Positions 2,739 through 21,452 of a DNA stretch of 64,000 nucleotides are shown here, in pieces. Positions within the stretch are counted from its first letter, which is position 1. Each line of letters starts with the position of its first letter. Position numbers and translations under genes: made by a program. The DNA lies in the NCBI RefSeq assembly GCF_046105845.1, contig NZ_CP151004.1; one strand, written 5' to 3'. The stretch comes from Escherichia coli (GTDB taxonomy: Bacteria > Pseudomonadota > Gammaproteobacteria > Enterobacterales > Enterobacteriaceae). The notes beneath the pieces were generated by a model, which was given only the letters and a program-made list of their open reading frames with translations, did no database searches and had not been told where the DNA came from.

Positions 2739-4351
<1,613 letters not shown>

Positions 4352-7595: not shown

Positions 7596-7634
7596 GGCTA
7601 TTATTTAAACTATTGTTTTATTTGATTTAGTGAG

Positions 7635-7675
7635 TGCCATTGATGATATTGACTGCATTATCAATGGCATTTTTC
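7635..7675 (+). terminator. Rho-independent terminator of guaA
   Basis: tgccattgat N15 atcaatggca 10-bp stem followed by ttttt. Confidence 0.7.
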
Positions 7676-7928
7676 ATGGTATAAGGCCGACGCTGAATCG
7701 AAGATATAGCAAATACCATGTGACCCTATCAGCAAATGCCATGGTATCGACAACCGGGGGCATTGCAGCGCTGTGCTGATGCCATCGATGCCCGCTTTTG
7801 GTCAGAACCGCTCTCTCGACCCAAGCCTCCAGATCGTTAAATATGCGCCAGAGGAGCACCTCGTGATCGAAATTGTGAACAAGACAGCCGCCGCTCGGAA
7901 TCGAAGTATCCATATGGGTGAATAAAGT

Positions 7929-7957
7929 TTGCGGAAAACACGCTGAGAAAATAGAAA
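7929..7957 (+). promoter_or_regulatory. Weak candidate sigma-70 promoter for the DUF262 gene pair (TTGCGG N17 TAGAAA)
   Basis: Hexamers with 17-bp spacer about 25 bp upstream of ATG 7981; RBS aaggga at 7968-7973. Confidence 0.25.
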
Positions 7958-7980
7958 AGCGTCAATGAAGGGACATAGCA

Positions 7981-9261
7981 ATGGCGATTAACGGAGAGGA
8001 CGGTGTTAGTGCAGTCACCGTGGATGAACTACTCAAGCAAGGCCTTCGGATACCGAACTATCAACGCCCATACAGTTGGGAAGTATCGACCGCTCTACAA
8101 CTGGTGGATGATCTTAGCGAAGCTCTTCGAGATACCGAAAGAAAAGATATTCCCTATGTTTTGGGTGCAATCATTCTTCACGATGATGGTGAGTATCTCA
8201 ATGTAGTCGACGGACAGCAACGTCTGCTGACTTTGCGAATGATTCTTGCGGCCTTAGATCCGATAAATCATCAGATTTCGGTGTCTGGTAACAGCGAAAC
8301 TCCTGTCTCCCTGGTTTGGATAGAGCTTCAAAGGCGCCTGTCGCAGTTGGAAGATAAAAAAGAATTTTTGGATTTTATCTGTCACAAATGTCAGTTGGTG
8401 CGTATTGTGACGGACGATATTGATGAGGCATTTCGTGTCTTTGATTCCCAGAACTATCGCGGCAAACCGCTTGCCCCTCATGACTTGCTCAAAGCACACC
8501 ACCTCCGCGAAATGCACGATGAGTCCGCTGCTATGAAAGTGGCTGTCGTTGAGGCTTGGGAAGCCGTAAATGATGAGGATCTGGACAGGCTTTTTTCTAC
8601 TTTTTTATACCGGATATCCAAGTGGTCACGAGGCGAAAGCTCGCTCGAATTTGCTATTCGGGACATCGGGATGTTTAAGGGAATTTCATCACGATCCCAC
8701 AGATCATTTTCGCCAAATCTGCGATATCACCTTGCAGCACAAGCCGCTATGCCACTTCTAAGTGCATGGGCGGTGTCCTCTACACATGATGCACGAAATG
8801 CCGGGCGCAGCCGCTTTCAGCTTGATGCCCCGATAATCGCTGGGCGCTCATTTTTCGAGATGGTGACATTCATGCTTGACGAATTGAAGATACTGGAAAA
8901 AGAGGTTATCGACAGAGGTTTCAAAAACTTTGGCCCATCTCAAAGTCGCTACCGCTACGTGTACGAATTGTTCATTGCCGCGCTGCTTTGCTATACAAAC
9001 AAGTTTGGCGATGAAGATGTGGATGAAGTGCGAAATAGATTATTCGCATGGGCATATGCCTTGCGGGTCGAGTTACTTCGTGTGCAATTTGTATCTGCTG
9101 ACAACCGAGCTCGAGGTAAAAACGATGCAAATAAATCGCCTTTTGTTTTGCTACGCAACGCGATGACTGGAAGTGTTGTCCGCAAACTTCCAATAGCAAG
9201 TCAGCCATACAACGATAACCACGAAAAGGAACTCGTTGCTTTTATCAAGGGGCTGCAATGA
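7981..9261 (+). CDS. DUF262 (ParB/Srx-like, DGQQR motif) protein, 426 aa, no recognisable nuclease domain
   Basis: Motifs IPNYQRPYSW, VDGQQRLLTL (8209-8223), FRVFDSQNYRGKPLAPHDLLK; stop overlaps next start (ATGA). Confidence 0.88.
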   Translation: MAINGEDGVSAVTVDELLKQGLRIPNYQRPYSWEVSTALQLVDDLSEALRDTERKDIPYVLGAIILHDDGEYLNVVDGQQRLLTLRMILAALDPINHQISVSGNSETPVSLVWIELQRRLSQLEDKKEFLDFICHKCQLVRIVTDDIDEAFRVFDSQNYRGKPLAPHDLLKAHHLREMHDESAAMKVAVVEAWEAVNDEDLDRLFSTFLYRISKWSRGESSLEFAIRDIGMFKGISSRSHRSFSPNLRYHLAAQAAMPLLSAWAVSSTHDARNAGRSRFQLDAPIIAGRSFFEMVTFMLDELKILEKEVIDRGFKNFGPSQSRYRYVYELFIAALLCYTNKFGDEDVDEVRNRLFAWAYALRVELLRVQFVSADNRARGKNDANKSPFVLLRNAMTGSVVRKLPIASQPYNDNHEKELVAFIKGLQ

Positions 9262-11210
9262 GCAAGAAGGAGTTGAGACCCGAACTGATAACAGTAGGCA
9301 AGCTATTCACGGGCTATTATCTGATTCCTATTTATCAACGGAACTATGCTTGGCGGGCCGAACAGATTGAGCAACTTATCAGCGATATTCAAGGCTCGGT
9401 GGTTGGGGGCCAGGACGACTATTTTCTTGGGAACCTTGTTGTAATCAAGCGGGGTAGAGAGGACGAGTTCGAGGTCATAGATGGACAACAACGACTTACA
9501 ACCCTCTATCTGCTTCTGACCTTCCTGGAGCAAGACGGTGAGGGTGGGAAGCTGTCGATTGGCCATGCAGGCCACTTGCAATATGAGTCGCGCGCACGGG
9601 CAACGGAAGCCCTGCGGCGAGTAGCACAGGAGGCGGCTAAGGGGCACGTCCGACCGCAGGGCTCCACGAGTAATGCAGATGCTGGCATCCATGAAGGCTA
9701 CAGCATCATCAATCAGTTCTTCAAACAAAATGAAACCCTTAATCGCTCACGCGAAAAATTCTCCGATTTCTTGCTAAAGAAGGTTACTGTCGTCCGTGCC
9801 TCGCTGCCACCCAATACCGACCTCAATCGCTACTTCGAGATCATGAACACTCGTGGGCAGCAACTCAAGCAGGTTGATATTGTTAAGGCTCGCCTGATGA
9901 GCAAGCTGCCCAATCAATATGAACGCGAATGCTTCGCGTGGGTTTGGGATGCCTGTGCTGACATGGATTCTTATGTCCAGATGTCTCTGACCCGTGGTGA
10001 CACCAGTTTACGAAACAAAGTATTTGGCGATGAATGGTCCTGGCTGGAGGTGACCAGCTTCGCGTCGCTAATGGAAAGTCGTCCGCAATCCGACATCAGT
10101 TCATTAAGGCAATCCTCCGAAGGGGTATCGTTGTCCTTGGATGAGGCGTTGTCAAAATACGCTAAAGAGATCGAGTCAAATTCCACTGAAGACGAGGGCA
10201 ACGAGCGGTTTCGTTCGACTATTGAGTTTCCGGCCTTTCTGCTACACGTTCTAAGAATTATGAAAGGCGATGAGGTCGAAGACGAAGGCCAGCTTGACGA
10301 CAAGCGCCTCATCAAGTCATTTGACGACGCCGTAAATAATGTACCCGATGCTAAAGCCGATTGGGTGCGTAGCTTTGCATTTATGCTTCTTAAGTGCCGT
10401 AACCTCTTCGATGGCTTCATCTTGAAGCGTCAATTCACGGCGAACATCGGTGACGATGGCGATTGGTCTCTCCAGCGATTGAAGAAAGGCGGTGCGGACA
10501 AGAAGCCAGCCCCGACGTACATCCATGTTTTCTCGGCCAGCAATGGAAACTTGGAGGAGGACAGCGGTGCTGACCCACATACCCGAGATGTATTGTTGCT
10601 TCAGTCCATGCTTCGGATTACCTACACTTCTCCGCGAACGATGCACTGGATTACCAAAGTTCTTCGCTGGCTATCCGTTAAAGCCCCTCAAGACGCGAAA
10701 CATGCGGATCTTGCCGATTTGTTGAAGGGGTATGCCCGCAGCAAGGTTAAAGAGACATTCCCCTTTGAGGAAGATCAGCAACCACAAGGGTTTGGTATCA
10801 GCCGTATCGTCTTTTCATACCTCGACTATCTTCTGTTGAGTGATTCCTCAAAACGAGATTTCAAATTTCAGTTCAGAACTTCCATTGAGCACTTTTATCC
10901 ACAGCATCCGGACAAAGAACAGTCGGGCGCGGCTGTTTCAGGTTCTAGCCTTAACCTGCTTGGCAACCTCGCGCTCGTAAGCGTCAGCGCGAACTCAAAA
11001 TTCAGCAATAGCCTTCCCAGAGCGAAGGCCGAAAACTTCAAGGATACGATTGAACTTCAAAGTCCCAAGCTCAAGAGAATGGCGGAAATCGCTCGAAATA
11101 CAAGCTGGGACGATCAGCAGATAACAGCACATCATGAAGAGATGGTGACATTGCTTCGTGATGATGTAAGTCTGGTGGAGGCAAGCGGAAGATCCTACCC
11201 GGGGCGTTGA
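9258..11210 (+). CDS. GmrSD-like protein: N-terminal DUF262 plus C-terminal DUF1524 His-Me-finger nuclease motif, 650 aa
   Basis: IPIYQRNYAW, IDGQQRLTTL (9480-9494), YFEIMNTRGQQLKQVD; C-terminal SIEHFYPQHP (10887-10904) and GNLALVSVSANSKFSN. Confidence 0.88.
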   Translation: MSKKELRPELITVGKLFTGYYLIPIYQRNYAWRAEQIEQLISDIQGSVVGGQDDYFLGNLVVIKRGREDEFEVIDGQQRLTTLYLLLTFLEQDGEGGKLSIGHAGHLQYESRARATEALRRVAQEAAKGHVRPQGSTSNADAGIHEGYSIINQFFKQNETLNRSREKFSDFLLKKVTVVRASLPPNTDLNRYFEIMNTRGQQLKQVDIVKARLMSKLPNQYERECFAWVWDACADMDSYVQMSLTRGDTSLRNKVFGDEWSWLEVTSFASLMESRPQSDISSLRQSSEGVSLSLDEALSKYAKEIESNSTEDEGNERFRSTIEFPAFLLHVLRIMKGDEVEDEGQLDDKRLIKSFDDAVNNVPDAKADWVRSFAFMLLKCRNLFDGFILKRQFTANIGDDGDWSLQRLKKGGADKKPAPTYIHVFSASNGNLEEDSGADPHTRDVLLLQSMLRITYTSPRTMHWITKVLRWLSVKAPQDAKHADLADLLKGYARSKVKETFPFEEDQQPQGFGISRIVFSYLDYLLLSDSSKRDFKFQFRTSIEHFYPQHPDKEQSGAAVSGSSLNLLGNLALVSVSANSKFSNSLPRAKAENFKDTIELQSPKLKRMAEIARNTSWDDQQITAHHEEMVTLLRDDVSLVEASGRSYPGR

Positions 11211-11443
11211 CTTCTTTGAATAACCGCTTTTGGACGAAAGTCCCTTGTGGAGTGCAAGTTGTCAGTCTAAAAGCGTTTTGCGTCAGGCGACACGATCAGT
11301 ACAGCTCCCAGGTTTTCTTACCATGGTATTTTGTGTGGTATCGACATGCAAATATAATGCTATTCTATTGATTTTACAGTGTTTTAAGGCGGCATTAATC
11401 ATCGAGTGGGAATGATTTGACCCTGCACTATGAATGAACAAAA

Positions 11444-11469
11444 CCCTCTGTTACTACAGAGGGTTTTTT
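11444..11469 (+). terminator. Rho-independent terminator between the convergent DUF262 operon and yfgI
   Basis: ccctctg ttacta cagaggg followed by tttttt; A-run on the other side makes it partly bidirectional. Confidence 0.65.
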
Positions 11470-11507
11470 ATCTTCAAGAATTATAGGCTTGAAGTTACTT
11501 ACATCGA

Positions 11508-12891: not shown

Positions 12892-13083
12892 CTAACGTTG
12901 TACCGGTGATTCGACGGAGAGTGTGGATTGCTGAGCTTCTTTTTTGCTCTGATGGTGCTGCCATGCACCGACGGACGAGTAGATAAAACGGCCAAAGAAG
13001 AAGATAAAGCTGATGAGCAGTACGATACGGGTCATGCGACTGTTAAATCGGTGTCGTTTTCGCATACTGGTTGCCTGACTCAC
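12892..13083 (-). CDS. yfgG: Small membrane protein YfgG (63 aa)
   Basis: 63 aa ORF with one hydrophobic helix; position matches K-12 yfgG. Confidence 0.65.
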   Translation of the reverse strand: MSQATSMRKRHRFNSRMTRIVLLISFIFFFGRFIYSSVGAWQHHQSKKEAQQSTLSVESPVQR

Positions 13084-13293
13084 AAAAGGTTCCTTGAAGT
13101 ATGTCCCACGCTGTGGACGGTACTTACATTAAGGCACAACAGGACAAAATGGTCAATTCTTCGTTATGTAAAAAAGCGTCAGTGGATACATATTTTAATG
13201 TTATGGAAGTTAATTTAATTATTTACAATGATGATGTAATAATGATGAATTAACATGATAAACGTAATAATTCATTAATCAGGGTTATTTTGT

Positions 13294-13307
13294 TTGATAT
13301 ATATCAA
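13294..13307. promoter_or_regulatory. Consensus FNR box TTGAT-N4-ATCAA upstream of pdeF
   Basis: Perfect TTGATatatATCAA about 128 bp upstream of pdeF ATG in AT-rich region. Confidence 0.5.
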
Positions 13308-13434
13308 TTGGAACTTTCATATGACACTTAGAATCAATGCTCTCTATAGTGATGAATAATCATCATTCGAAGTCAGGTGGGATGCCTGTCTGAATACACC
13401 TCCTTCAGGATGTGGGGGATTCTGCTGAGCATCT

Positions 13435-15678
13435 ATGAAACTGAATGCAACTTATATAAAAATACGTGATAAATGGTGGGGGCTTCCGCTGTTCCTGCCT
13501 TCTTTAATCTTGCCCATTTTCGCCCACATTAATACTTTCGCGCATATTTCTTCCGGTGAGGTTTTTCTCTTTTATCTGCCTCTGGCTCTGATGATCAGCA
13601 TGATGATGTTTTTCAGCTGGGCGGCATTGCCAGGGATCGCCTTAGGGATTTTTGTCCGCAAATATGCAGAGCTGGGTTTTTACGAAACGCTCTCATTAAC
13701 GGCTAATTTTATTATCATTATCATTCTCTGTTGGGGCGGTTACAGGGTCTTTACTCCCCGGCGTAACAACGTTTCACATGGTGATACCCGTTTAATTTCC
13801 CAGCGTATATTCTGGCAGATTGTGTTTCCTGCAACGCTGTTTCTGATACTTTTCCAGTTTGCTGCGTTTGTAGGATTACTGGCGAGCAGAGAAAATCTGG
13901 TCGGCGTCATGCCTTTTAACCTCGGGACCTTAATCAATTATCAGGCCTTACTGGTGGGCAATCTGATTGGTGTCCCGCTGTGCTACTTCATCATTCGGGT
14001 GGTGCGAAATCCGTTTTATTTACGTAGCTATTATTCGCAATTAAAACAGCAGGTTGATGTCAAAGTCACCAAAAAAGAGTTCGCGCTCTGGCTACTGGCA
14101 TTAGGTGCGTTGTTGTTGCTGTTATGCATGCCGTTAAATGAAAAAAGCACAATTTTTAGCACCAATTATACCCTGTCATTATTGCTGCCCCTGATGATGT
14201 GGGGAGCGATGCGCTATGGTTATAAGCTGATTTCGCTGCTCTGGGCGGTCGTGTTGATGATCAGCATCCACAGCTATCAAAATTACATTCCCATTTATCC
14301 TGGCTATACCACACAGCTGACCATAACCTCCTCCAGTTATCTGGTATTCTCTTTTATTGTCAATTATATGGCTGTACTGGCAACCCGTCAGAGAGCGGTA
14401 GTCAGACGCATTCAGCGGCTTGCGTATGTGGACCCGGTGGTTCATCTGCCAAATGTTCGCGCCCTGAATCGCGCGTTGCGTGATGCCCCCTGGTCTGCGC
14501 TTTGTTATTTACGCATCCCTGGCATGGAAATGCTGGTTAAGAACTATGGCATCATGCTGCGGATTCAATACAAGCAAAAACTTTCTCACTGGCTGTCACC
14601 CTTGCTGGAACCGGGTGAGGATGTTTATCAGCTTTCGGGTAACGATCTCGCGCTGCGACTGAATACAGAATCGCACCAGGAGCGCATTACCGAACTGGAT
14701 AGCCATCTCAAGCAATTTCGTTTCTTTTGGGATGGAATGCCGATGCAACCGCAGATTGGCGTCAGTTACTGCTATGTGCGCTCGCCAGTGAATCATATCT
14801 ACCTGTTGCTGGGAGAGCTAAATACGGTCGCCGAGCTTTCCATCGTGACCAACGCCCCGGAAAATATGCAGCGTCGCGGGGCAATGTATTTGCAACGCGA
14901 ATTGAAAGATAAAGTCGCGATGATGAATCGGCTACAGCAGGCGCTGGAACACAACCATTTTTTCCTGATGGCCCAGCCGATTACCGGTATGCGTGGCGAT
15001 GTCTACCATGAAATTCTTCTGCGCATGAAAGGTGAGAATGATGAACTGATCAGCCCCGACAGCTTCTTGCCGGTCGCGCACGAATTTGGTTTATCGTCGA
15101 GTATCGACATGTGGGTCATTGAGCATACGCTGCAATTTATGGCTGAAAACAGAGCGAAGATGCCCGCTCACCGTTTTGCGATTAATCTGTCGCCAACCTC
15201 GGTATGTCAGGCTCGTTTTCCCGTTGAAGTCAGTCAGCTGCTGGCTAAATATCAAATTGAAGCGTGGCAACTTATTTTTGAAGTCACCGAAAGTAATGCT
15301 CTGACAAATGTTAAGCAGGCGCAAATCACCTTGCAGCATCTTCAGGAATTAGGCTGCCAGATTGCGATTGATGATTTCGGCACCGGCTACGCCAGCTATG
15401 CGCGGCTTAAAAATGTGAATGCCGATTTGCTTAAAATTGACGGCAGTTTTATCCGCAATATTGTGTCAAATAGTCTGGATTATCAGATAGTGGCGTCGAT
15501 TTGCCACCTGGCGCGAATGAAGAAAATGCGGGTAGTGGCAGAGTACGTTGAAAACGAAGAGATCCGCGAGGCGGTGCTCTCTTTGGGGATCGATTATATG
15601 CAGGGTTATCTTATTGGTAAGCCGCAACCGTTAATTGATACGCTGAATGAAATCGAACCCATTCGCGAAAGTGCCTGA
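13435..15678 (+). CDS. pdeF: c-di-GMP phosphodiesterase PdeF (YfgF); MASE1-GGDEF(degenerate)-EAL
   Basis: 747 aa; N-terminal multi-TM domain, C-terminal EAL motifs. Confidence 0.93.
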   Translation: MKLNATYIKIRDKWWGLPLFLPSLILPIFAHINTFAHISSGEVFLFYLPLALMISMMMFFSWAALPGIALGIFVRKYAELGFYETLSLTANFIIIIILCWGGYRVFTPRRNNVSHGDTRLISQRIFWQIVFPATLFLILFQFAAFVGLLASRENLVGVMPFNLGTLINYQALLVGNLIGVPLCYFIIRVVRNPFYLRSYYSQLKQQVDVKVTKKEFALWLLALGALLLLLCMPLNEKSTIFSTNYTLSLLLPLMMWGAMRYGYKLISLLWAVVLMISIHSYQNYIPIYPGYTTQLTITSSSYLVFSFIVNYMAVLATRQRAVVRRIQRLAYVDPVVHLPNVRALNRALRDAPWSALCYLRIPGMEMLVKNYGIMLRIQYKQKLSHWLSPLLEPGEDVYQLSGNDLALRLNTESHQERITELDSHLKQFRFFWDGMPMQPQIGVSYCYVRSPVNHIYLLLGELNTVAELSIVTNAPENMQRRGAMYLQRELKDKVAMMNRLQQALEHNHFFLMAQPITGMRGDVYHEILLRMKGENDELISPDSFLPVAHEFGLSSSIDMWVIEHTLQFMAENRAKMPAHRFAINLSPTSVCQARFPVEVSQLLAKYQIEAWQLIFEVTESNALTNVKQAQITLQHLQELGCQIAIDDFGTGYASYARLKNVNADLLKIDGSFIRNIVSNSLDYQIVASICHLARMKKMRVVAEYVENEEIREAVLSLGIDYMQGYLIGKPQPLIDTLNEIEPIRESA

Positions 15679-21256: not shown

Positions 21257-21452
21257 ACTGCTTTACACAACCTTTTTGTACGTCTTTTCCCCAGGCGCGC
21301 GGCAAAACAATACTTGTACCAGGGCAAAGGATCGTTTTCGGATGGAATAATCTTCTTCCATAACCATTTGAATATAAAATAACTTTATCTCAAACCGTTA
21401 TCATTTTGACTAAAGTCAACGAAAATAATATTGCCGCCTTGAAGAAAGGAGG

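Follow-up and report, generated by a model that had tools for sequence, protein, structure and literature searches.

The 64-kb Escherichia coli window, by which we mean the whole stretch of DNA analyzed, carries a 747 aa ORF at 13435–15678 on the (+) strand that begins with an ATG and encodes MASE1 and EAL domains, as identified by ORF calling, domain search and RefSeq annotation. The name of this ORF, pdeF (yfgF), was taken from a RefSeq genome of 100% identity and from the K-12 MG1655 annotation. An initial annotation made from the sequence had named the gene product as the c-di-GMP phosphodiesterase PdeF, and both the MASE1/EAL domains and the RefSeq annotation agree. Transcribed divergently from pdeF is yfgG (12892–13083, (−) strand), which encodes a 63 aa DUF2633 protein, and the two genes are separated by a 351 bp spacer (13084–13434). 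RefSeq places a 50 aa hypothetical protein, WP_000017552.1, at 13101–13253 on the (+) strand, between yfgG and the FNR box described below; it has no Pfam match and is without annotation in K-12 MG1655. Farther from the spacer, a 3.9 kb insertion (7596–11507) lies between guaA and yfgI and is missing in both K-12 and E. coli strain 7/2, where guaA and yfgI adjoin each other. The insertion holds two overlapping (+) strand ORFs, at 7981–9261 (426 aa) and 9258–11210 (650 aa), both of which match PADLOC HEC-06/Orf5/SspE-like models, and the 650 aa ORF has the GmrSD_N and GmrSD_C (DUF262/DUF1524) domains of type IV restriction. The insertion is a small defense islet.

Within the yfgG-pdeF spacer, at 13294–13307 (center 13300.5), is the 14-mer TTGATATATATCAA, a perfect TTGAT-N4-ATCAA. 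This sequence agrees with the FNR consensus at 10/10 positions and is a 14 bp inverted repeat and a perfect palindrome. Exact matches to TTGATNNNNATCAA were sought on both strands of the window and found only at 13294–13307, where the initial annotation had proposed a perfect FNR consensus site upstream of pdeF. The distance it had given between the site and the pdeF start, about 128 bp, is also correct, as subtracting the end of the site (13307) from the position of the ATG (13435) gives 128, with 127 nt lying between them, and the site is indeed in an AT-rich setting. The AT-rich tract spans 13150–13349, with a GC fraction of 0.21–0.26 in 100 nt windows, and is a likely target of H-NS/StpA. 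Matches to the FNR consensus with one mismatch occur at two other places in the window, 49917 and 60037, both of which fall within long ORFs. By chance, the expected number of exact TTGATNNNNATCAA matches per window is 0.09 on average, and at least one was present in 9/100 dinucleotide-preserving shuffles, so the chance statistic alone is a weak argument for the box (p about 0.09 for the window). We take the box to be real because it is conserved, being present in 5372/5426 E. coli genomes with half-sites kept across four genera, and not because of the chance statistic. Two more FNR-like sites in the window, at 21406–21419 and 4322–4335, are the reverse complements of sites in the FNR ChIP-seq peaks of Myers et al. 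(PMC3688515), in which TTGACTAAAGTCAA is the upp/purM site and GTGAGCGAGATCAA the guaB/xseA site. Counting the pdeF box, the window has three ChIP-supported FNR sites.

Downstream of the box, beginning 21 nt after it, is the hexamer TAGAAT (13329–13334, (+) strand), named in PMC3718329 as the −10 of the FNR-dependent pdeF promoter. Applying the published −41.5 position to the center of the box places the +1 at 13342 on the (+) strand, equivalent to about 2629031 on the (−) strand of U00096.3. With this +1, TAGAAT falls at −13 to −8, and both 13341 and 13342 are compatible with the −10. Transcripts seldom start with a C, which is the base at 13342, and the true +1 may therefore lie one or two bases away. 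The predicted transcript would have a 5′ leader of about 93 nt (13342–13434, (+) strand), running from this start to the annotated ATG. The would-be −35 region (13305–13312, (+) strand) matches TTGACA at 0–2 of 6 positions with spacers of 16–18 nt, and there is thus no usable −35 at that spacing from TAGAAT. In a class II promoter that depends on an activator, the activator covers the −35 region, and a missing −35 is what one would anticipate there. A start that left the box away from the −41.5 or −61.5 spacing had been named as evidence against the site; the position reported in the yfgF promoter summary of PMC3718329 is −41.5.

A consensus scan identified a second sigma-70-like promoter, ATGACA-18-TATAGT (10/12 matches), at 13321–13350 on the (+) strand, overlapping the start of the FNR-dependent transcript. 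This candidate FNR-independent promoter could supply pdeF transcription without FNR, and the same hexamers were reported under an RpoD-holoenzyme genomic SELEX peak in the yfgF/yfgG spacer, where a constitutive yfgF promoter was proposed (Shimada et al. 2014, PMC3946193). In the alignment described below, the ATGACA and TATAGT hexamers were kept within Escherichia only and were not conserved in the other genera, and we therefore consider this promoter to be secondary at most. The yfgF/yfgG spacer is also a genomic SELEX target of PgrR (PMC5934670).

The FNR box and class II promoter of pdeF are already known, having appeared in print in 2010 and been borne out by genome-wide data in 2013. According to the summary of Lacey, Partridge & Green 2010 (Microbiology 156:2873) given by Lacey et al. 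2013 (PMC3718329), yfgF of K-12 has a class II promoter that depends on FNR, with an FNR box at −41.5 and the −10 TAGAAT. Genome-wide, Myers et al. 2013 detected an FNR peak in the yfgF/yfgG spacer by ChIP-seq with MOSAiCS, NCIS and CisGenome, and by ChIP-chip (PMC3688515 Table S5). The site that they predicted under this peak is exactly TTGATATATATCAA, whose PatSer score of 16.08 (ln p −14.9) is among the best in the genome (Table S6), and their coordinate, 2627088 in U00096.2, is no more than one base away from ours. In Table S9 of that study, the peak is assigned to yfgF as its estimated target, with one known TSS credited to Lacey 2010. FNR has also been entered as an activator of yfgF under anaerobiosis in a RegulonDB curation paper (PMC4207228 Table 4), and the PdeF protein was undetectable aerobically and was termed 'induced anaerobically' by Sarenko et al. 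2017 (PMC5635695). The further proposal of the initial annotation, that the FNR site drives anaerobic expression of pdeF, is supported by PMC3718329 and by the FNR ChIP-seq and ChIP-chip peak on the 14-mer, with the proviso that the dependence is conditional, there being no fnr-dependent change in glucose minimal medium. Neither yfgF nor b2503 turned up in the available supplements of the FNR/ArcA study by Federowicz et al. 2014. A literature search using the newer name, pdeF, together with FNR returned no match. Induction of the gene reportedly peaks in stationary phase and at a temperature of 28°C.

These results were obtained with K-12, and we compared its spacer with that of the window. 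The two are identical at 350/351 positions, the sole difference being at 13312, 5 nt past the box, where the window has A and K-12 has T, and the box itself is an identical 14-mer at 2629066–2629079 of U00096.3. Because the spacer differs at a single base that is outside of the box, the K-12 results carry over to the window. Across the species, the box with its flanks (32 nt) is single-copy with at least 99% identity in 5372/5426 complete E. coli genomes. In E. coli ECA64 and CB6837, the yfgG-pdeF spacer is interrupted by an IS1 element at the equivalent of window 13257–13264, with GATAAACG as the target duplication, and the end of the IS1 is 29 bp upstream of an intact FNR box. With yfgG and the AT-rich DNA upstream thereby cut off from the core promoter, these strains offer a natural test of upstream H-NS/UP-element effects.

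To extend this comparison beyond the species, a footprint set was assembled by scanning species-representative genomes for the PdeF protein with exact peptide patterns. Full-length orthologues came from several Escherichia lineages, Enterobacter asburiae, two Phytobacter species, six Kluyvera genomes and one enterobacterial MAG, giving 14 loci with upstream sequence in four genera; Salmonella and Citrobacter loci fall outside the resulting set. We found that the box was present in 14/14 loci with 0–1 mismatch to the consensus, in the forms TTGATATATATCAA, TTGATGTGCATCAA, TTGATATGCATCAA, TTGATGTATATCAA, TTGACTCAYATCAA and TTGATTTAAGTCAA, and that the TTGA and TCAA cores were invariant in every locus, while the mean column identity of the alignment was 62%. 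The TTGA core, with T and not G at its first position, sets FNR sites apart from the GTGA of CRP sites. A −10 hexamer, TAGAAT or TAAAAT, was found exactly 21 nt after the box in 14/14 loci, with 5/6 of its positions invariant, and the intervening 21 nt were largely different between loci. As the box, the −10 and the spacing were kept across loci while the intervening DNA diverged, the three are under joint purifying selection, which lends independent computational support to the class II architecture. The cross-genus footprint thus documents a fixed spacing of 21 nt from box to −10.

We conclude, with a probability of about 0.94, that the 14-mer serves pdeF as the operator of a class II promoter activated by FNR. 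The site, its geometry and its conservation, and the occupancy by FNR in vivo are established here or in the literature, where expression that depends on FNR and anaerobiosis is also reported, though not under every growth condition. In the mechanism that we propose, dimeric [4Fe-4S]-FNR would bind TTGATATATATCAA when oxygen is lacking, centered about 41.5 bp upstream of the start, and would stand in for the missing −35, recruiting and activating sigma-70 RNA polymerase at TAGAAT. The resulting pdeF mRNA would begin with a leader of about 93 nt and be translated into the c-di-GMP phosphodiesterase PdeF. Oxygen would destroy the cluster, upon which the dimer would dissociate, FNR would leave the DNA and the promoter would fall silent. 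The contacts made in activation, and the chemistry of the cluster, are for the pdeF promoter inferred from general knowledge of FNR. The box ties oxygen sensing by FNR to c-di-GMP turnover, PdeF being the anaerobic phosphodiesterase of E. coli.

The divergent arrangement of the locus bears on whether the same box also serves yfgG, as a bidirectional class II or a distal site, which would make it a shared anaerobic switch for the two genes. We consider such a double role unlikely. The box is a perfect palindrome within the 351 bp divergent spacer, and yfgG was O2-responsive in the wild type, with a fold change of 0.45 (about 2-fold) that goes in the same direction as the 0.11 of yfiD, which is induced anaerobically (PMC3688515 Table S12); however, the target assigned to the peak by Myers et al. 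is yfgF, and their table of fnr-dependent operons lacks yfgG. The weak −10-like AATTAT at the mirror position on the minus strand (13267–13272), which would suit a yfgG promoter, is a hexamer of the kind expected by chance in an AT-rich region, and the start codon of yfgG is 217 nt away from the box center. Moreover, for yfgG it is another promoter, TTGACC-17-CTTAAT, that was predicted under the RpoD SELEX peak (PMC3946193).

Reports of the dependence of yfgF on fnr and anaerobiosis differ by growth condition, with PMC3718329, PMC4207228 and PMC5635695 speaking for it and PMC3688515 (Tables S9 and S11) against. In anaerobic glucose minimal medium, the yfgF/yfgG peak was accompanied by no fnr-dependent change in expression (PMC3688515 Table S9). 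Loss of both H-NS and StpA, in an hns stpA double mutant, raised the FNR ChIP-chip signal at the box from 0.35 to 1.68 (Table S7), and it was only in this mutant that yfgF was O2-regulated, with a +O2/−O2 ratio of 0.23 (Table S11). The yfgF/yfgG spacer was also flagged 'HNS' by Shimada et al. 2014 (PMC3946193). Together, this suggests that the AT-rich region is silenced by H-NS/StpA in addition to being controlled by FNR, and such silencing would explain the condition-dependent induction. Given this apparent silencing, FNR binding appears to be necessary but not always sufficient for pdeF expression.

The same observations could be taken to mean that the FNR-bound box is largely non-productive in vivo, that pdeF is governed mainly by H-NS/StpA silencing and by ATGACA-18-TATAGT, and that FNR is at most an anti-silencer. 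A ChIP peak with no fnr-dependent change in glucose minimal medium, an FNR ChIP signal that increases and O2 regulation that emerges in the hns stpA background (PMC3688515), and an RpoD-holoenzyme SELEX peak that has this promoter and is flagged HNS (PMC3946193) would all suit this reading. Nevertheless, it is very unlikely to be correct. O2 regulation in the hns stpA mutant is also how an FNR-activated promoter would behave once freed from silencing, and activation by FNR from the class II position is what the promoter analysis reports, as far as it is set out in PMC3718329 and PMC4207228. Furthermore, ATGACA/TATAGT is confined to Escherichia, whereas the box and a TAGAAT-type −10 keep their exact spacing in four genera. 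As for the palindrome having arisen by chance in AT-rich DNA, or serving another protein of the CRP/FNR family such as CRP, the exact consensus does arise in 9/100 shuffled windows and the region is 21–26% GC, but this is excluded in practice because an FNR ChIP peak sits on the site (PMC3688515) and the half-sites and their spacing are kept across genera while the flanks have diverged.

Besides the box and the −10, the alignment has a third conserved island, which lies in the pdeF leader. At 13374–13391 on the (+) strand is the block CAGGTGGGATGCCTGTCT (consensus CAGGTkGGATGCCTGyCT), which is invariant or near-invariant in the 14 loci of the four genera. We found a single copy per E. coli genome, at least 99% identical in 5398 genomes (40 nt blastn), which rules out the block being a dispersed motif. 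As RNA, the block can pair CAGGU with GCCUG in a 5 bp hairpin whose loop contains GGA. Farther along, at about 13400–13419, another potential hairpin keeps a loop GGA in all of the species aligned. A CsrA-regulated leader would have at least two GGA motifs in hairpin loops, one of them overlapping the Shine-Dalgarno sequence; here GGA is kept in two potential loops, neither of which overlaps that region. A mini-ORF of three codons, ATG CCT GTC TGA (13382–13393), starts within the block, and a stop follows its third codon in 12/14 sequences, including the change of TGA to TAA in Kluyvera intermedia.

Several searches bear on what this block may be. By eye, a sigma-54 promoter was rejected, as the GG-N10-GC spacing does not fit, as was an NsrR half-site, with about 7 of 11 matches. 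Rfam at E ≤ 10 returned only noise for the block, namely snoRNA families plus a single cis-regulatory family that scored 16 bits where the cut-off is 100. RNAalifold predicted one invariant hairpin of 7 pairs in the leader, with no compensatory changes or covariation since the stem never varies, and when folded as a single sequence the whole leader was no more stable than its shuffles (z = −0.48). The available supplements of an E. coli CsrA CLIP study, in which the gene was probably not expressed, do not contain yfgF/pdeF, and in the literature we found no description of the block. The block is thus an unexplained lead with thin evidence for function, and it seems to be undescribed so far. 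We tentatively raise, as possible but doubtful, a second and undescribed layer of control, be it GGA-loop hairpins bound by an RNA-binding protein such as CsrA, the mini-ORF, or a repressor operator at about +33 to +50. If this were true, leader control would gate PdeF synthesis after FNR has fired. Expression of pdeF is apparently gated also by H-NS/StpA, then, and possibly by the conserved leader element.

The closest known system is the K-12 yfgF class II promoter of Lacey, Partridge & Green 2010, which, going by the published summary of that study, is the same element, with TTGAT--ATCAA at −41.5 and TAGAAT upstream of the same gene. The window differs from K-12 by the one A/T base at 13312 and by the 3.9 kb insertion, which is unrelated and about 1.8 kb away. 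In Salmonella Enteritidis, the yfgF promoter has an FNR box at the same position, TTGAC--ATCAA, with the −10 TACAAT (PMC3718329). The Salmonella Enteritidis box carries one mismatch in its left half-site, TTGAC, a variant also present in most of the Kluyvera loci of our alignment. Among other class II FNR-activated promoters with near-consensus boxes, yfiD (TTGATTTAAATCAA) has the same 14 bp inverted repeat, with a comparable PatSer score of 17.25 versus 16.08 for yfgF (PMC3688515). The yfiD and cydA/ylcI sites in the list of Myers et al. are like that of yfgF in being occupied by FNR in ChIP-seq, in lying in the −35 region and in being paired with a good −10. What sets yfgF apart from yfiD is that in glucose minimal medium its expression did not change with fnr and its O2 regulation needed the loss of H-NS/StpA.
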